The notes below the pieces were generated by a model. It was not told the origin of the DNA. It did no database searches and saw only the letters and a program-made list of their open reading frames with translations. A stretch of 64,000 bases of DNA from Escherichia phage JEP6. The stretch lies in sequence record MT764206.1; one strand, written 5' to 3'. Within the stretch, counting starts at the first letter, position 1; each line of letters starts with the position of its first letter. Positions 2,575 to 57,725 of this stretch are shown here, piece after piece. The position numbers and the translations under genes are program-made.

Positions 2575-3775
2575 ATTTTGTAATAATGTCAAACTGTTCT
2601 TTAAAGCAGAAGCTTGAATCTTGGTGCTGATACAAAAATTCATATGCTTTTTCTCGCTCACGGTCATAAAGAGCTCGGTCAGATGACAGTTCTTTAATAC
2701 GCTCGAATGTTGATTCCATGTCATTTTCATCAAACCAAATGATACCACTATCATGCGAGGTCAAAGGAGTATTATCAACACGGAATTTTAAATTATCACC
2801 CGTTGATTTCCAAAATACCGGAATTGTACCGCAAGCACCTAATTCAAGATGAGTATATTCGAGTGAGCGTTGTAAGTATTTCTGGTTAAGTTTACTCAAC
2901 TGATATCCAAAGCCAGATTTACTCATTCGTTCAAGCATTTCACTATTAATATAACAATCTAGGATTTGTGCCGGTTGATTCGGCGTGAGATTCATTTTAT
3001 CAATCTCACGATTACCATAATATTCATACGGAATACCTTTTTCCTTAATTGCAATAAAAGCAGGGGAACGTTCAAGACCTTCCATTACAGTGGATTTACC
3101 AGCAGGTTTTAAGAATTTTTCGTGAAAATCAAACATCTGATAAAAACCTTTCCATGTAGTCGTACGACCAATCCAACGGTTGATGTTCATGTTAATTTCA
3201 GAAACATCTTTCCAATAAGTTGACCGAACCTTCACAATATCCATAGGAGGCTGAAAATTATATACTGTTGGTGCTTCTTCAATATCATCAAACAGAGAAA
3301 CAGTTTCTGGATACCATTCTTTCATCAGAACTTTATTAAAATCGCCATTATCAGAATGACTAAAAATAACATCAGCTCGACGAACAGTTTCTTCTAATCC
3401 CAAATTTCGACGCAAAGAAAGCACAGAATGATCATGCTGATAAACTACAACACGAATAGAAGGTTTAATATTATCTAAAAGTTTTTTATAGTTATTAATC
3501 GTAGCTTCTTGAACGGAAGTAGCAGGAACAGAATTAATAATTAGAATATCACAATCATTTACCAGCTTAAGTGCTTTATCGTATTCTTTAGCTAAAATAA
3601 CTGGAATTGAAAATGATTTGTGGTCATGAGAACTTGTACGAGTAAATGATTTATCTTTAGCATAAACCAAAGTTACTTCATGACCATTTTTAATAAACCA
3701 ATCACGCTGCTCAAGAGAAAATTTAGTTACACCGCAACCTTCAAGACCCCGAGCCAGAAAAATGCATACTTTCAT
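2573..3775 (-). CDS. a-gt: DNA alpha-glucosyltransferase
   Basis: 400 aa; N-terminus MKVCIFLARGLEGCGVTKFS and overall sequence match recalled T4 AGT; position between 47 and 55. Confidence 0.85.
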   Translation of the reverse strand: MKVCIFLARGLEGCGVTKFSLEQRDWFIKNGHEVTLVYAKDKSFTRTSSHDHKSFSIPVILAKEYDKALKLVNDCDILIINSVPATSVQEATINNYKKLLDNIKPSIRVVVYQHDHSVLSLRRNLGLEETVRRADVIFSHSDNGDFNKVLMKEWYPETVSLFDDIEEAPTVYNFQPPMDIVKVRSTYWKDVSEINMNINRWIGRTTTWKGFYQMFDFHEKFLKPAGKSTVMEGLERSPAFIAIKEKGIPYEYYGNREIDKMNLTPNQPAQILDCYINSEMLERMSKSGFGYQLSKLNQKYLQRSLEYTHLELGACGTIPVFWKSTGDNLKFRVDNTPLTSHDSGIIWFDENDMESTFERIKELSSDRALYDREREKAYEFLYQHQDSSFCFKEQFDIITK

Positions 3776-3828
3776 TTAATATCCTCTTTGTTTTGGTTTA
3801 TTTTATCAAAAAATTTATAAAGCAATAT

Positions 3829-3844
3829 AGGAGCCGAAGCTCCT
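3829..3844 (-). terminator. hairpin AGGAGC-CGAA-GCTCCT
   Basis: GC hairpin with CGAA loop downstream of small ORF 3883-4023. Confidence 0.35.
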
Positions 3845-3882
3845 ATCCGCATAATACGCCATACAAAGGCTCGTTAGAGCTT

Positions 3883-4023
3883 CTAAATTTTTATGCGCTT
3901 ATATGTTATAGTTCCTTCTGCTTTAGCTTTATCGTAAGACTCTTTAAAGCGTCTCATCATTTCTACTTTAGAGGAACGAATTTTATTATAATCTATTTCA
4001 GAAGTCTGGTGTTCATCTTTCAT
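3883..4023 (-). CDS. hypothetical small protein (46 aa)
   Basis: ATG overlaps stop of ORF 4020-4226 (ATGA); followed by hairpin. Confidence 0.3.
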   Translation of the reverse strand: MKDEHQTSEIDYNKIRSSKVEMMRRFKESYDKAKAEGTITYKRIKI

Positions 4024-4226
4024 AACTGCCACCATTTTTTGACTTGATAAGAATCAACCCACACTTTCATATTAGGGTCTGCTCTTACAATAGGAGGATT
4101 AACTTCTTTAATTGAACTATCATGGTATTCTTTTTCAGAAATTTTCACGCAAAGATGACCGTTCAAAGATTCAGTAAATCCTGCATTAATTTTAAGACGC
4201 TTGAATTTTACGTGTGTAAGCATCAA
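4020..4226 (-). CDS. hypothetical protein
   Basis: ORF track 68 aa; co-oriented, coupled to neighbours. Confidence 0.4.
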   Translation of the reverse strand: MMLTHVKFKRLKINAGFTESLNGHLCVKISEKEYHDSSIKEVNPPIVRADPNMKVWVDSYQVKKWWQL

Positions 4227-4509
4227 TCATATCCTCAATCTGCGATCTAGTAGTCTTCCAAAGAATACTGATGAGTTCATCGTTATATGGCTGTTTTAGA
4301 ATATCCCGACTTTTCTTGATAGCATATTCGTATTGAGCAAAATTATTATTTTCAGCTGCGATCTGAGCGTGCTTATAAAGACGATTCAGTTCGCGTTTGT
4401 TTTTAGACAATAACTTATTTGCTTTTCTTTCTGCTTCAAGACGGTTCTTTTCTTCAATAGAAGAAATAAGCTTTTCCACTTCATCATTAATTTCGGGTTT
4501 ATCAGTCAT
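4192..4509 (-). CDS. hypothetical protein
   Basis: ORF track 105 aa. Confidence 0.5.
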   Translation of the reverse strand: MTDKPEINDEVEKLISSIEEKNRLEAERKANKLLSKNKRELNRLYKHAQIAAENNNFAQYEYAIKKSRDILKQPYNDELISILWKTTRSQIEDMIDAYTRKIQAS

Positions 4510-6890: not shown

Positions 6891-7020
6891 AAATCATGTG
6901 TTTATGTAACTTAAGTATAAGATAATAAACATCATAACCATTTACGTAAGTAACGCGAACAGCATTACCATTAATAAGATAATACTGTCCCTTTTTAATT
7001 TCTTTATCAATCATAACCAT
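6838..7020 (-). CDS. hypothetical protein
   Basis: ORF track 60 aa; early promoter immediately upstream. Confidence 0.45.
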   Translation of the reverse strand: MVMIDKEIKKGQYYLINGNAVRVTYVNGYDVYYLILKLHKHMICDRAVFSSVAKEIKLYG

Positions 7021-7050
7021 ATCAATTCCTCAAAGGCAATTCATGTGTTA

Positions 7051-7080
7051 ATAATACCACGGTTTGAACTTGTTGTAAAC
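7051..7080 (-). promoter_or_regulatory. T4-type early promoter (GTTTACA-N17-TATTAT)
   Basis: minus-strand -35 GTTTACA and -10 TATTAT with 17-nt spacer and A/T-rich upstream tract; about 30 nt upstream of ORF start 7020. Confidence 0.6.
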
Positions 7081-7177
7081 AACTTTGTGAAAATATTTTA
7101 GGGAATGATAAGAAAGGAACGATAGCTTAGAATGGTAATATACAGAATGTAAGAAAGAAAGGCCCAGAAGGCCTATC

Positions 7178-29831: not shown

Positions 29832-30097
29832 TAGTATTTTTCCTCTGGTTGGAACACAGCACGGCAAGCCCACATACTGGCTTCTTTGAGTTTCGTTTTA
29901 GCAATAGTTAACTGATCGAGGCTTTCGGCGTAATTCTTCGCGAGTTCACAGTCTTCACAATTATCTAGTGCTTCCCAGAATTCATCGTATAAAGCATCAA
30001 AGATAAGTCCTAAACGAACTTCAGCGTCTTTGATAGCATTCACTTTACCGATTTTCTTTTCAGTATGCGGCTTATAACCCTTAATATCTTCAATCAT
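29831..30097 (-). CDS. hypothetical small protein (vs.4 position; Acb2 candidate by position only)
   Basis: 88 aa from ATG 30097 with GAGGAAG RBS; position relative to regB and the GrcA-like gene. Confidence 0.4.
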
Positions 30098-30311
30098 ATT
30101 TGACTTCCTCACCAGTACATAAATCATATTCAACTAAACGAATAGGTTCATGAATGCCATATCCTTGAACAGAAATTTCTGTAGTAGGATAAATTCCATC
30201 AATATCGCCCATATTCCACGCTTCATTAAATTGCTGTTCGCCTGAATTACTAAACCATTCGGCGAAAGCATTTAGCACATCTTCAGAACCTTCAATAATT
30301 ATCTTTGCCAT
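30090..30311 (-). CDS. hypothetical protein (vs.5 position)
   Basis: ORF track 73 aa. Confidence 0.45.
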   Translation of the reverse strand: MAKIIIEGSEDVLNAFAEWFSNSGEQQFNEAWNMGDIDGIYPTTEISVQGYGIHEPIRLVEYDLCTGEEVKYD

Positions 30312-30673
30312 TACAAACTCTCGGTAAAGGTACGAGCGATAACGTCGCGCTGCTGTTCCGGAGTCAGAGAGTTAAAGCGAACTGCATAACCGGATACACG
30401 GATGGTCAGCTGCGGATATTTTTCCGGATGCTTAACTGCATCTTCCAGAGTTTCACGACGCAGAACGTTAACGTTCAGGTGTTGACCACCTTCAATTTTA
30501 ACTGTAGGCTGTTGCTCAATTTCAATTTCACGGGCATGCAAACCGTAGAAAATTTCTGGGTCTACAAAAGAGTCCTCTTTAAAGGTTTTAGAAACGATAA
30601 TTCGTGCTTGAATACCATCTTCAAAATAAATAGTACCTTTATGTGTGCCTTCAAGAATTTGATATGCTTTCAT
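30311..30673 (-). CDS. autonomous glycyl radical cofactor (GrcA/YfiD-like)
   Basis: 120 aa; C-terminal ~60 aa ([59 protein letters not shown]) essentially identical to recalled E. coli GrcA, including glycyl-radical RVSGY. Confidence 0.8.
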
Positions 30674-30680
30674 ATAAACC

Positions 30681-31010
30681 TCAATTAGAAAATAAATTTA
30701 TCCAAGATTGTTCTTTAATTAAAAATGGCTCAGAATCATATGCCATTAAACTCTGTGTGATTAGTCCTTTAAAAGGCCCATCAATAAATTCCATGGTAAA
30801 ATATGGAATTTTATTCATTAGCCGTGCATTAGGAGCAGTACACAAAACTCTGCATCCTTTGAATACACCTTTTTGTAATTTGTATTGCTTAGGATAAAAT
30901 TCACTTAAAATGTTATTTTTTGCCAAAATTTCAAAATGATTCACCAATTTATTTTTAATAGTTTTTGGCGAAAAATAAAGATATTCGAAAAGCTGAGTGT
31001 CTGTCATCAT
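30681..31010 (-). CDS. hypothetical protein
   Basis: 109 aa from ATG 31010 (ATGA overlap with upstream stop); track start 31061 is an extension. Confidence 0.45.
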
Positions 31011-31546
31011 TGCATTCCGATTACGAAAAACTGCGGACGAGTAATACCACCAATACAACATTTAATATTACAGCAGCAGTGTACAGTGTCAATGTGGACA
31101 CTATAAATCTTATCCATATCAGGAGATTTGACAGGCTCATCAATTATATATAAAATTCGCGAAAGCGATAAACCTCTGAACTTGCTTCCTTTATTACCAA
31201 TAAAACTGCGCACAGAATCAGTAAATAAACGAAAACGTATATCATCATTAGAATAACGCGAAAATTCCTTTTTAATGTTATTTGCAGAAATTTTAGCGTA
31301 AGCTGAAGTATTAGAAAGAACAATAACCGTTCCGCCATCATATAACCAATTAGCAGCAAAGTTAGTCACAGCAATTGATTTACCTGATTGACGTCCACCA
31401 TCTAGTCGAAGTGTGCAATACTGTTTAAGTAAGTCTTCAAATGGTGGGACATAACCGTTCTTACAAATTTCTTCTACTCTAGCATCAGAATGGTGTGTAA
31501 AAGCATTCATCAGGGATAGATAAGGTCCAGTTAAAAATGTTCTCAT
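31007..31546 (-). CDS. small P-loop NTPase with Cys-rich C-terminus
   Basis: 179 aa; Walker A GGRQSGKS, Walker B LYIIDEP; occupies the position where T4 has denV. Confidence 0.5.
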   Translation of the reverse strand: MRTFLTGPYLSLMNAFTHHSDARVEEICKNGYVPPFEDLLKQYCTLRLDGGRQSGKSIAVTNFAANWLYDGGTVIVLSNTSAYAKISANNIKKEFSRYSNDDIRFRLFTDSVRSFIGNKGSKFRGLSLSRILYIIDEPVKSPDMDKIYSVHIDTVHCCCNIKCCIGGITRPQFFVIGMQ

Positions 31547-31627
31547 TTAGTTTCTCTTTTAGGTTGGGCCATTCCGTGGCGCATGAATTGTCCATTTCTG
31601 TATTTACCCCTCCAAGTAATTATGAAT

Positions 31628-31657
31628 ATACTATCACAATTCTAGGAGAAAGTAAAC
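31628..31657 (-). promoter_or_regulatory. T4-type early promoter (GTTTAC-N18-TAGTAT)
   Basis: conserved element between ipII stop and ORF start 31546. Confidence 0.55.
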
Positions 31658-31659
31658 TG

Positions 31660-31962
31660 TTATTTACCTTTAATTACTTTAGCTGCTTCGATAGCCGCTT
31701 GCTGAAGGTCATCCATAGACATACCGAATTTAGAAGCAAAGTTATCAATTTTCTTTTCGACAGCATTCAAAGGCTTGGCCTGTTTACCTTCATTAGCGCC
31801 AGGAAGAGCGAGAATACGCTCTTTGTCAATATAAAGGCTTACAAGTTTCTTACGGTCTTTATCGGACAAATCATGAAATGAATGGGCCTTTTTATTTATA
31901 GCGGCTTCTAATTTACCTGCACTCACTCGCGCTTCAGTAATAAATTCTTGATATGTTTTCAT
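31660..31962 (-). CDS. ipII: internal protein II
   Basis: 100 aa; N-terminal capsid-targeting sequence MKTYQEFITEA; matches recalled T4 IPII. Confidence 0.85.
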   Translation of the reverse strand: MKTYQEFITEARVSAGKLEAAINKKAHSFHDLSDKDRKKLVSLYIDKERILALPGANEGKQAKPLNAVEKKIDNFASKFGMSMDDLQQAAIEAAKVIKGK

Positions 31963-32021
31963 ATGTTTCCTTTAAATGTAAATATTTTAATTGGTAATTG
32001 ACTGTTTAAGTAACTGTGAAT

Positions 32022-32051
32022 ATATTATCACAATTCTAAGAGAAAGTAAAC
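32022..32051 (-). promoter_or_regulatory. T4-type early promoter (GTTTAC-N18-TAATAT)
   Basis: conserved element between e stop and ipII start. Confidence 0.55.
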
Positions 32052-32056
32052 TGCTT

Positions 32057-32581
<525 letters not shown>

Positions 32582-46895: not shown

Positions 46896-48932
46896 ATGAA
46901 TTATAACGAAATTGTTGATGAATTAGTTGATACCATACAATCAGCTTGTTCAATTATTCCCGAAGGTTATTATAGACGAGTTAAATGGGAATTATACAAT
47001 CCCAATAAAGAAATGATTCAACCCGATAATGGGGTTGAATGGGACACTGAAATTATTAAATTAGATACCCATCTTTACACCGAAAATCCATTTGGTCATT
47101 CTTCTGATACATTTACTGAATCATCTAATGGAGAAACCCAAACTGGTGTTTTTTGTCATAAAATCGGCGTGTATTTTCCAACTCAAACTGCGTTAGAAGA
47201 TTACGTTGAACAAATTGGTGCAACTTTACTTCCAGGTAATACTTGGTATGGTGCTGATTTATCGAAACGTGAATTTTTTAAAACTGAAATTGAATATGAT
47301 ATGTATCGCATTGAAAATCGCGGAGGTACATGGCATCATACGGGTCCTAGAATAGATGCTAGGACAATGATCGGTGTTAACAATGACTATACAATGTATG
47401 TTAACTTTAACGGTTTAGGAGATTATCGAAGAGCATATTTAAAATATTATGAAGATAAACCATGCACATATGTCGGTTTAACACTAAATTTAAATATAGA
47501 TACATCAATTCCCGGTATTCCTTATTCACCTCCATCAATTATTGGAGAGCTTCCACTTAATGCAATTTCATGCGTTAATTTTACTGCCCAATTTCCATAC
47601 AATGGCTTAACATCTGCAATTATTGAGGCTTGGAACACCTCAAGAGATTCATTTAAACTATATTGGGATATGTTGCCTGGTATGCCGGCAATTAGCGGAA
47701 GTGATTTTGAAAAATATTTTAATTCGGCATATACACATTTATCTGTAGCAATGGAAGAGCTTGGAAATTCGGCAATTGCCATGTGTCAATATGTTCAGCA
47801 ACAAGCCTTTATGGTTTTTAAAAATTCTGTTTCACAAGTTCTAAATATTGTCGGTGGCGGATGGGATTTATTAAAAAGTTTTTTACCTAAAATAACAATA
47901 ATGGGCATATCTATTGATATTGAAGATTTATGTACATCAACAGATGGTGTTCAAAAATTGAAGGAAACCTTTGAAAATTTTAATCTGGAAGATACTATTA
48001 GTTCAATTTATTCTGCAATGGGTTCTGCATATGACTATTCTATAGAACGCGTTAAAATGTATTCGCGGGATTTAGTTGATGCAATAACAGATTTATATGA
48101 TTGGGCCTGGTCAAAATTAATGATGGCCGGTGTCGCTTTATCAAAATTATGTGTTGATTTAGCACAAATCTGGAGCATGCCGCCAATTATTCCAAATCCA
48201 GTGTGGTCTGTTATCACTTTAGTGAAGGAAATGATGAAACAAATTCCTCCATTAGATATGATTATGTCAGGTAATTTTCCTGGATTTACTGCTTCTGATG
48301 TATATCAGATGGTTATGTCTATCGTATCTGAAAAAATTAAACAAGTTTATACTGAAATAGAATCATTAAAAACCCAAGCATTGGATGTATGGAATGAAAT
48401 TAAACTAAAAACACAGGAATATAAAAAGCAAACGATTGAATTTAAACAATATTTATCAGGAATGGCTGAAAAGGTTGAAGATGAAATAACTATAGCAAAA
48501 AAGAAAGCGTTACAAGAAGCTGAATCCGCTTTAAATGTTTTAAAGGATAAATATAACAGTATTAAAGACTTAATAAAAAATAAACAGATTTCTGTGTCTG
48601 ATGTATTAGATTTAGCTTTGACTGAATTTCGAAAAATTCCATTAATTTCACAAATGGAATCATTATTATCTTTAGCTGGAGCATCTATCGATGATATAAT
48701 GAAAGTATATGAAAATAGCGTTACTAAAGCAAAATCATTATATCACGAATTCACCGATGGCGCTCGGTCAATGAAAGATCTATGCAAATCATTATACAAT
48801 CAAATTTCGACTTTATGTTTGAGTAAGGTTGTGCAATGGATTAATAAAATGCTTGGAATATTTGGATTAAGTATTACATTTCCAACAGTATCAATATGCA
48901 TTCCATGCTTAAAAACTCCTATGAGGAATTAA
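46896..48932 (+). CDS. large uncharacterised protein (678 aa) between gene 5 and gene 6
   Basis: continuous ORF from ATG 2 nt after gp5 stop to 1 nt before gp6 ATG; N-terminal globular part, C-terminal coiled-coil region and hydrophobic Cys-containing tail; no motif recognised. Confidence 0.65.
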   Translation: MNYNEIVDELVDTIQSACSIIPEGYYRRVKWELYNPNKEMIQPDNGVEWDTEIIKLDTHLYTENPFGHSSDTFTESSNGETQTGVFCHKIGVYFPTQTALEDYVEQIGATLLPGNTWYGADLSKREFFKTEIEYDMYRIENRGGTWHHTGPRIDARTMIGVNNDYTMYVNFNGLGDYRRAYLKYYEDKPCTYVGLTLNLNIDTSIPGIPYSPPSIIGELPLNAISCVNFTAQFPYNGLTSAIIEAWNTSRDSFKLYWDMLPGMPAISGSDFEKYFNSAYTHLSVAMEELGNSAIAMCQYVQQQAFMVFKNSVSQVLNIVGGGWDLLKSFLPKITIMGISIDIEDLCTSTDGVQKLKETFENFNLEDTISSIYSAMGSAYDYSIERVKMYSRDLVDAITDLYDWAWSKLMMAGVALSKLCVDLAQIWSMPPIIPNPVWSVITLVKEMMKQIPPLDMIMSGNFPGFTASDVYQMVMSIVSEKIKQVYTEIESLKTQALDVWNEIKLKTQEYKKQTIEFKQYLSGMAEKVEDEITIAKKKALQEAESALNVLKDKYNSIKDLIKNKQISVSDVLDLALTEFRKIPLISQMESLLSLAGASIDDIMKVYENSVTKAKSLYHEFTDGARSMKDLCKSLYNQISTLCLSKVVQWINKMLGIFGLSITFPTVSICIPCLKTPMRN

Positions 48933-55920: not shown

Positions 55921-57725
55921 TGAAACAAAATATTAATATCGGTAATGTTGTTGATGATGGTACCGGTGACTACCTGCGTAAAGGTGGTATAAAAATAAAT
56001 GAAAACTTTGATGAACTTTATTATGAACTTGGTGATGGAGATGTTCCATATTCAGCCGGTGCCTGGAAAACTTATAATGCTTCATCTGGACAAACACTAA
56101 CGGCAGAATGGGGAAAATCATATGCCATTAACACTTCATCTGGAAGAGTAACTCTACAACTTCCTAAAGGAACCGTTAATGATTATAATAAAGTAATTAA
56201 AGCTAGGGATGTATTTGCAACATGGAATGTTAATCCAGTTACTCTAGTAGCCGCTTCTGGTGATACTATTAAAGGATCATCGTCATCAGTTGAAATTAAT
56301 ATTCAATTTAGTGATTTAGAGCTCGTTTATTGCGCTCCAGGACGCTGGGAGTATGTCAAAAATAAGCAAATCGATAAAATTATCAGTTCAGACATTAGTA
56401 ATGTAGCTCGTAAAGAATTTTTAGTCGAAGTTCAAGGGCAAACAGACTTTTTAGATGTTTTCCGTGGAACTAGTTATAATGTCAATAACATCAGAGTAAA
56501 ACATCGTGGTAACGAATTGTATTACGGTGATGTATTTAGCGAAAACAGTGACTTTGGCTCTCCGGGCGAAAATGAAGGCGAATTAGTTCCTCTTGATGGA
56601 TTTAATATTCGATTAAGACAGCCTTGTAATATTGGTGACACTGTTCAAATTGAAACATTTATGGATGGTGTATCACAATGGAGAAGTTCATATACTAGAC
56701 GCCAAATAAAAGTACTAGATTCAAAACTAACATCAAAGACTTCTTTAGAAGGAAGCATTTATGTTACTGATTTATCGGCGATGAAATCAATTCCATTTTC
56801 TGCATTTGGATTAATTCCTGGTGAACCCATTAATCCTAACTCTCTTGAGGTTCGTTTTAATGGAATTTTACAGCAGCAGGCTGGAACAGCTGGATATCCT
56901 CTGTTTTTGTGTGAAGGCGCTAATTCAGATACGCAAGAAGGATGTATATCTCTTGGTGGCGAATGGAAAGAATCAAACACCGATTATTCTATAGAATATG
57001 AAGACGGAAAACCTATCAGTCTTTTATTTGATAGAAAATTTGAATCCGGTGACATTATCGTTATAACATGGTTCAATAATGATTTAGGAACTCTTTTAGA
57101 AAAAGATGACATCATTGAATTGACTGATGACCGTTATGTTAGTAAAGGGTCAGCTACTGAAGTTACTGGTGATGTGGCCTTAACAGATTTTGATAAAATC
57201 GGTTGGCCAAATGTTGAAAAAGTTGATTCTTATACTAGAACGTATAATTCAATATCATCTATTTTCGACAGCATTTATCCTGTTGGTTCAATTTATGAAA
57301 ATGCTATAAACCCAAATAATCCGGTGACTTATATGGGATTTGGTTCATGGAAATTATTTGGTAAAGGACAAGTTTTAGTAGGATGGAATGATGATGTTAC
57401 AGATCCAAACTTTGCATTAAACAATAATGATTTAGATTCTAGCGGAAATCCTTCACATACCGCCGGTGGAACAGTTGGTACAACATCAGTAACGCTTGAA
57501 AACGCAAATCTTCCTGCAACTAAAACCGACGAAAGAGTTTTAATTGAAGACGAAAATGGATCGGTTATTATTGGAGGTTGCCAATATGACCCAGATGAAA
57601 CTGGTCCTATATATACAAAATATCGTGAAGACTACGCAACAACAAACTCTTCACATACTCCTCCTGCTAATATTAGTAATATTCAACCGTCTATTACTGT
57701 ATACCGTTGGATAAGGATTGCATAA
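55920..57725 (+). CDS. 10: baseplate protein gp10
   Basis: 601 aa; TAATG overlap with gp9 stop. Confidence 0.85.

Follow-up and report, generated by a model that had tools for sequence, protein, structure and literature searches.

A T4-like phage locus with vs.8 and vs.7 in their conserved position and no denV between vs.8 and e

Genes and promoter elements of the locus

The locus was analyzed within a 64-kb stretch of the Escherichia phage JEP6 genome (MT764206.1), referred to here as the window. Its genes follow the order vs.6-vs.7-vs.8-ipII-e, and vs.3 and regB are also present in the window. The features of the locus are summarized in Table 1. As had been described from the sequence before, a 179-aa ORF on the minus strand contains the Walker A and Walker B motifs GGRQSGKS and LYIIDEP and is coupled to a 109-aa ORF. 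The coupling consists of an ATGA at 31007-31010, in which the ATG of vs.7 overlaps the TGA of vs.8. The longest mechanical ORF in the vs.7 frame comprises 126 aa and overlaps vs.8 by 55 nt, while the 109-aa length is backed by homologues and by PHROG 2049.

Table 1. Features of the locus and their positions in the 64-kb window
Feature	Position	Strand	Remarks
vs.4 orthologue	29834-30097	-	97.7% identical to T4
vs.5, 73-aa ORF	30090-30311	-	
vs.6, GrcA-like glycyl-radical protein	30311..30673	-	downstream neighbour as in T4; 98% T4 Vs.6; Pfam Gly_radical E=2.5e-18
vs.7 orthologue, 109 aa	30681..31010	-	Pfam PF26834 Phage_T4_Y06J family
vs.8 orthologue, 179 aa	31007..31546	-	predicted stand-alone P-loop (ASCE, RecA-like) ATPase domain
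Vs.8 Cys-rich variable segment CCCNIKCCIGG	31046..31078	-	residues 157-167
Vs.8 Walker B and catalytic Glu, LYIIDEP	31133..31153	-	residues 132-138; checked against sequence
Vs.8 Walker A, GGRQSGKS	31376..31399	-	residues 50-57; checked against sequence
Putative deletion junction	31603..31609	-	single GGGTAAA remaining; two copies 507 bp apart in denV-positive relatives; alignment
PeSL-like cassette copy 1	31614..31664	-	former denV promoter and SD, now directly before vs.8
ipII, internal virion protein II	31660..31962	-	flanked by two promoter copies; 93% identical to T4 IpII; PHROG 7857
ipIII absent between ipII and e	31963-32056		
Early-promoter cassette copy 2	32008..32058	-	88% identical; between e and ipII
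e, T4 lysozyme	32057..32545	-	directly after ipII; 96% identical to T4 e

Profile searches matched Vs.8 to PHROG 1488 (E=2.7e-79, residues 3-179 on profile positions 2-177 of 177) and Vs.7 to PHROG 2049 (E=3.6e-54), both of which are annotated as unknown function. Judged by these profiles, both ORFs are genuine conserved genes and not chance ORFs.

Several observations were made on neighboring genes. The vs.4 homologue in an STML-198-type locus carries the Pfam domain Acb2_Tad1_hairpin, and the neighborhood thus includes a counter-defence gene of the cyclic-nucleotide-sponge type. The T4 Vs.5 protein (58 aa) matches the 73-aa vs.5 of the window in two frames; since the STML-198 homologue fits the 73-aa version, the T4 reference vs.5 appears to be frameshifted. 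Elsewhere in the window, the interval from gene 5 (tail lysozyme) to gene 6 contains a 678-aa ORF at 46896-48932 (plus strand). A match to PHROG 5296 (unknown function) spans the entire protein, which also shows weak similarity to tape-measure proteins. In BF15 the corresponding place is taken by two short ORFs of about 180 and 100 aa, and T4 carries the short genes 5.1-5.4 there.

vs.8 and vs.7 are found at the same position in T4

A megablast search with positions 30300-32000 against 50,697 phage records gave matches in 854 of them, nearly all T4-like phages and T4 included. Vs.8 of the window is 97% identical to residues 41-219 of T4 Vs.8 (NP_049732), and Vs.7 is 100% identical to T4 Vs.7 (NP_049731), whose gene has the same ATGA overlap with vs.8 and which shows no difference from the window protein. 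T4 Vs.8, also listed as 'ORF 64.0' and as '25.0 kDa protein in the regB-denV intergenic region' (PHROG 1488), has the same strand, motifs and neighbors as its counterpart in the window. It differs in having Y and S in place of C157 and I161 and, in its RefSeq model, 40 extra N-terminal codons, an extension that is not conserved.

The T4 RefSeq order is regB, vs.3, vs.4, vs.5, vs.6 (GrcA), vs.7, vs.8, denV, ipII, ipIII and e. The preliminary description had placed T4 denV between the GrcA-like gene and ipII and had proposed that the P-loop protein and its partner fill this slot. While denV does lie in this interval in T4, vs.7 and vs.8 lie there as well and denV follows vs.8, so that T4 itself has the same two genes next to vs.6 in the same order. 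The position of vs.8 between vs.7/vs.6 and the ip/denV/e block is conserved in T4 and its relatives. In a DNA alignment, window and T4 were collinear up to and including vs.8 and once more starting at the end of ipII, and the T4 denV block was absent from the window and from its close relative BF15. The window was also considered as a copy of a known phage, and this was rejected: the best match reached only 95.7% identity at 95% coverage over 24 kb, and the window is therefore regarded as mosaic.

Translation starts of vs.8 were compared between lineages. The leader upstream of the start MRTF (window 31547-31600; T4 NC_000866.4 64793-64912) contains 1-nt and 7-nt indels between lineages, and the upstream ATGs consequently occupy all three frames. 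VIPECOOM01-type phages have them in frame (195 aa, MDNSCA...), whereas the window and BF15 have them out of frame and T4 has them in the remaining, third frame. Starting at MRTF, which the lineages have in common, gives 179-180 aa, the same length as PHROG 1488. Comparison of these leaders suggests that 40 codons of the 219-aa T4 RefSeq model of vs.8 are probably superfluous, an annotation artefact. An upstream ORF of 36 aa (MDNSCATEW...) at 31485-31595 (minus strand) begins 13 nt beyond GGAGGGG, the former SD of denV, and runs across the start of vs.8 in a different frame; one may speculate that it affects vs.8 translation in phages without denV. In the T2 record (AP018813.1, excerpt 3757-4289) vs.8 matches in three frames, implying two frameshifts, and T2 vs.8 is either a pseudogene or affected by sequencing error.

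Vs.8 is predicted to be a single-domain P-loop ATPase

By tblastn, Vs.8 was detected in 1009 phage records, every one from a T4-like phage that infects enterobacteria. Among 5.8 billion proteins, a word-indexed search returned 27 clusters, and a full HMMER scan matched 50 of 1.84 billion cluster representatives, almost all of about 130-185 aa and three longer (233-259 aa). To define conserved residues, 18 members with identities down to 40% were aligned. Invariant throughout were the N-terminal helix Y-L-x-L-M-x-A-F, the Walker A motif DGGRQSGK (18/18), R113 and R124-G125, residues I134, I135, E137 and P138 of Walker B (D136 is conserved in at least 90%) and the C-terminal F-x3-G-x-Q. Vs.8 has the GxxxxGK[ST] signature, an hhhhDE motif with the catalytic Glu and a RecA-like alpha/beta core, as expected for ASCE P-loop proteins.

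Comparison with the T4 large terminase gp17 by hhalign placed GGRQSGKS on LSRQLGKT and FRG..LYIIDEP on VRG..MIYIDEC, a weak match (E=0.0026, probability 11%). The Walker A motif of Vs.8 contains a P-loop arginine, as does SRQLGKT of gp17. PHROG 2 (terminase large subunit) matched residues 45-142 with E=1.5e-5, and Pfam Terminase_6N scored 12.6 bits, below its cut-off of 22. Scans of Vs.8 with Pfam, NCBIfam and PADLOC yielded only sub-threshold P-loop matches (AAA_14, Terminase_6N, HerA), and a profile search of PDB sequences gave best E-values of about 0.07, for FtsY and a DNA translocase coupling protein. Foldseek searches against viral models retrieved small (143-176 aa) uncharacterised proteins of other T4-like and jumbo phages.

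Two assignments to known families were rejected. Vs.8 is not a large terminase subunit: Terminase_6N remained below threshold, subdomain II and the nuclease domain of these proteins are missing, the protein ends after the core strand at residue 179, and vs.8 belongs to the early genes, far away from those for packaging. Compared with the terminase ATPases of gp17 (2o0h), Sf6 gp2 (4idh) and phi29 gp16 (5hd9), its core comprises only about 135 residues. Nor is it an SF2 helicase. Identity to the RecA1 domains of Mfd (6ac6), DDX1 (8tbx) and RIG-I-like proteins is 8-14%, and the single 179-aa domain is not accompanied by a second RecA domain, so that Vs.8 cannot be a canonical monomeric helicase. 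Vs.8 thus looks like the ATPase core of terminases and helicases while belonging to neither family. Public records label Vs.8 and Vs.7 as 'endoribonuclease', 'TraG-like protein', 'large terminase subunit', 'terminase-6 domain-containing protein' or 'baseplate tail tube initiator'. The labels disagree with one another, and nothing found in this analysis backs them.

From these features, Vs.8 would most likely hydrolyse ATP as an oligomer or together with a partner, and the invariant R113 and R124 could serve as arginine fingers. The C-terminal strand, ending G-M/T-Q, is conserved. During early infection the protein would most likely target nucleic acid or a host factor. Genes for host takeover and counter-defence (regB, vs.4/Acb2, the ip genes) form its neighborhood. 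Vs.8, usually together with Vs.7, might be a minimal one-domain terminase/helicase-like ATPase serving as a new ATP-driven counter-defence or nucleic-acid-remodelling factor, a proposal that we make with low confidence. Literature searches on Vs.8 and Vs.7 retrieved no functional experiment or paper.

Vs.7 was found by tblastn in 929 phage records with the same host spread as Vs.8. Its conserved core covers approximately residues 42-93 and contains two G-x-F-K/E-G motifs. Scans with Pfam, NCBIfam and PADLOC matched nothing in Vs.7, and its homologues carry a precomputed Pfam PF26834 (Phage_T4_Y06J) annotation. An AF2 model built from a three-sequence alignment reached a pLDDT of 44.6. T4, BF15 and a distant metagenomic relative all have the overlap between the vs.8 stop and the vs.7 start, and Vs.7 is usually co-translated with Vs.8. 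A strict pairing of both genes was rejected, as STML-198-type phages have a vs.5-like ORF after vs.8.

The segment CCCNIKCCIGG had been described as an unusual C-terminal tail. It proved to be internal: 12 more residues follow, and these form the conserved C-terminus. Across the 18 homologues the segment contains 0-5 Cys, varies in length and is the most variable part of the alignment. The Vs.8 model has its lowest confidence here, with a mean pLDDT of 46 for residues 161-170 and values below 50 for residues 162-168.

These comparisons bear on several readings of the two ORFs. That a novel small P-loop NTPase with a Cys-rich tail and a partner ORF replaced denV would agree with the absence of denV and with the place of the ORFs, which adjoin the expected denV position. 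However, T4 has both ORFs here alongside denV, tblastn found them in 1009 and 929 phage records, and the Cys pattern is not conserved. Since T4 carries vs.7 and vs.8 at the same position, the proposed replacement is refuted, and we give it next to no credence. Neither ORF resembles DenV, and no match of Vs.8 or Vs.7 to Pfam PF03013 (Pyr_excise) was obtained. The 55-nt overlap of the longest ORF in the vs.7 frame with vs.8 might suggest a single gene broken by a frameshift, but every Vs.8 family member ends in ...FFVIGMQ followed by a stop, and T4, BF15 and the distant metagenomic relative share the layout of two ORFs with overlapping stop and start. In STML-198-type phages, moreover, a vs.5-like gene stands after vs.8 instead of vs.7. 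The constant Vs.8 end and the two-ORF layout in relatives refute the idea of one gene, whose probability we regard as negligible. The five Cys within nine residues of the cluster HCCCNIKCC could also be read as a functional metal-binding or redox motif giving the window Vs.8 a special property, and two to three of them (CC..C) are kept among Tequatrovirus and Mosigvirus members. Yet several members with all catalytic motifs have 0-1 Cys there, conserved Cys/His ligands were not found among the 18 homologues, and the motif would lie in the stretch most variable in length and sequence and modelled with least confidence (residues 162-168). We therefore consider a metal or redox function unlikely.

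denV is absent from the window

As stated in the preliminary description, nothing resembling DenV is encoded in the window. Using tblastn, neither T4 DenV (best E 6.9) nor the wV7-type DenV, which is 78% identical to it (best E 3.9), matched anywhere in the 64 kb, which represent part of a genome of roughly 168 kb. T4 IpIII likewise had no match in the window.

The region between vs.8 and e was compared among relatives. T4 has the order vs.8-denV-ipII-ipIII-e, wV7 and fPS-90 have vs.8-ip4-denV-e, and LF82-5 has vs.8-ipII-ip-denV-ip-e. N2 carries a 3' denV remnant after vs.8, followed by ipII and denV. In pEK20 denV is internally deleted, and T2 shows vs.8-ip4-e without denV. BF15 combines a junction of the window type with a remnant of DenV residues 96-137 further on. 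Independent lesions or relocations of denV are thus seen in pEK20, N2, LF82-5, BF15 and T2. The compact vs.8-ipII-e layout was contiguous in two of 740 matching records, vB_Eco_F26 and Salmonella phage Manna.

BF15 is 100% identical to the window across the junction query, and its whole 167.8-kb genome contains no intact denV. The remnant (excerpt 6996-7121, MW822007.1 about 56495-56620) is 74% identical and lies between ip-type genes and e; by its sequence it may be taken as another sign of repeated denV decay in this region. No denV was found within 18.6 kb around the same layout in F26, nor in T2 (AP018813.1) between vs.8 and e or in 14 kb around the locus. Wherever denV was seen in the relatives examined, it lay between vs.8 and e. 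This interval is fully visible in the window and contains ipII only.

The ipII/vs.8 spacer carries a putative former denV promoter

The 113-bp spacer between ipII and vs.8 holds a T4-type early promoter, TTTACT-N17-TAGTAT, followed by GGAGGGG. Its leader of about 55 nt is found directly upstream of the denV start in many phages, among them wV7, fPS-90, HP3 and VIPECOOM01. Relative to the early promoter consensus of the T4/PST group, TTTACW-N17-TAYWAT (PMC4122927), the promoter has one mismatch, located in the -10 hexamer (TAGTAT). It was not among the predictions of a generic sigma-70 scan, and the window did not match the exact T4 early-promoter pattern GTTTAC-N17-TANNAT, since the distance from GTTTAC is 18 here.

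The promoter is part of a 51-nt cassette. As a second copy is located between e and ipII, ipII is flanked by direct repeats. Copy 1 is predicted to form a hairpin of -20.3 kcal/mol (z=-3.75), and the hairpin of copy 2 is weaker (z=-1.49). Related copies precede ipIII, ipII and denV in T4 as well as denV in wV7, and all ip genes share a common leader and the first codons MKTYQEF. PeSL-mediated shuffling has been described in T4-type phages (Arbiol et al., 2010, PMC2839356; Comeau et al., 2014, PMC4122927), and PeSL-like sequences were reported at two highly variable T-even IP loci (Repoila et al., 1994, as cited in PMC2839356). Here the PeSL trait of a stem-loop with repeated copies flanking variable ORFs in a hyperplastic region was found. 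Like PeSL cassettes, the element is repeated, about 50 nt long, has an early promoter within a stem-loop and flanks small non-essential variable genes; unlike them, its -10 hexamer deviates by one base from the consensus TAYWAT, and the breakpoint described below lies at a 7-nt repeat on the edge of the element and not in a PeSL core.

The junction between vs.8 and ipII

To locate the breakpoint, the window was aligned with VIPECOOM01, pEK20, N2 and T4. vB_VIPECOOM01, which has the order vs.8-denV-ipII and the same leader as the window, reads ...TTGGAGAGGTAAA-ATG(denV)...AATGGGTAAA-TACAGAAATGG...(vs.8), while the window reads ...TTGGAGGGGTAAA-TACAGAAATGG.... Relative to vB_VIPECOOM01 the window lacks exactly 507 bp, counted between the ends of two GGTAAA copies. 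These direct repeats, GG(G)TAAA, provide a microhomology of only 6-8 nt; one lies at the denV SD and start codon, and the other follows the denV stop at a distance of about 85 bp.

Based on this alignment, a deletion between the 6-8-nt direct repeats GG(G)TAAA would have removed denV and its 3' flank. By comparison with denV-positive relatives, the denV early promoter and SD would have been left directly before the vs.8 leader. Such a deletion is the simplest account of the vs.8/ipII junction that the sequences suggest. More generally, the repeated early-promoter/stem-loop cassettes and the common IP leader are known to cause ip genes and denV to be gained, lost and reordered at this locus.

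Two other accounts of the missing gene and its junction were weighed. The gene might not have been lost but lie elsewhere in the genome, beyond the 64-kb window, as it does move among relatives (vs.8/denV/ipII in T4, ip4/denV/e in wV7, ipII/denV in N2, ip/denV/ip in LF82-5). All of these places are within the vs.8-to-e interval, however, and in the window this interval holds ipII only; BF15 in addition has no intact copy genome-wide and F26 none in 18.6 kb. Given that the interval is fully visible, we consider a relocated denV improbable. A homologous exchange or reordering between promoter cassettes, of the PeSL type and possibly with another phage, could alternatively have created the junction, with denV and ipIII lost separately between ipII and e. 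The uninterrupted vs.8/ipII junction is present in at least 48 database records, and LF82-5 and WFbE185 have the identical junction with denV on the far side of ipII. It is because some phages with this junction keep denV beyond ipII that cassette exchange is given appreciable weight. The cassette of about 51 nt on both sides of ipII, found upstream of ipIII, denV and e in relatives, would offer the substrate, the route is described in the PeSL literature, and N2 keeps a 3' denV remnant at the vs.8 side along with a denV copy beyond ipII. On the other hand, the breakpoint relative to VIPECOOM01 falls exactly on the GG(G)TAAA repeat and not inside the long cassette, and pEK20 shows that small internal denV deletions occur at this site. 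Cassette exchange, and not a private deletion, may thus have created or spread the junction, a serious possibility to which we give somewhat less than even weight; a shuffled origin of the junction together with separate losses of denV and ipIII is judged likewise.

Implications

The best explanation of the locus, which we hold with high confidence, is a mosaic Tequatrovirus in which vs.8 and vs.7 are T4 orthologues in their normal place and denV was lost without replacement. As long-sequenced ORFs of T4, vs.8 and vs.7 carry little weight as a discovery, and presence or absence of denV in the hyperplastic ip/denV/e region is an already known T-even polymorphism. The analysis corrects the reading of this locus as a 'replacement' of denV.

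Without a pyrimidine-dimer glycosylase the phage would be expected to have a UV sensitivity like that of T2 rather than T4, an expectation that follows from the absence of denV. T2 is, like the window, a natural case of a T-even phage lacking denV (v) function, and differs in having ip4 where the window has ipII. The higher UV sensitivity of T2 compared to T4 was reportedly mapped to the denV (v) function in classical work ascribed to Streisinger in 1956 and Harm in 1963. The prediction that the phage is about as UV-sensitive as T2 would be relevant where such phages are used or inactivated in the field. If the deletion between direct repeats is accepted, the locus offers a clean natural example of the loss of a 507-bp cassette at a short repeat. 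Vs.8 and Vs.7 are near-universal in Tevenvirinae, and the residual interest of the locus lies in the function of this widely conserved pair.
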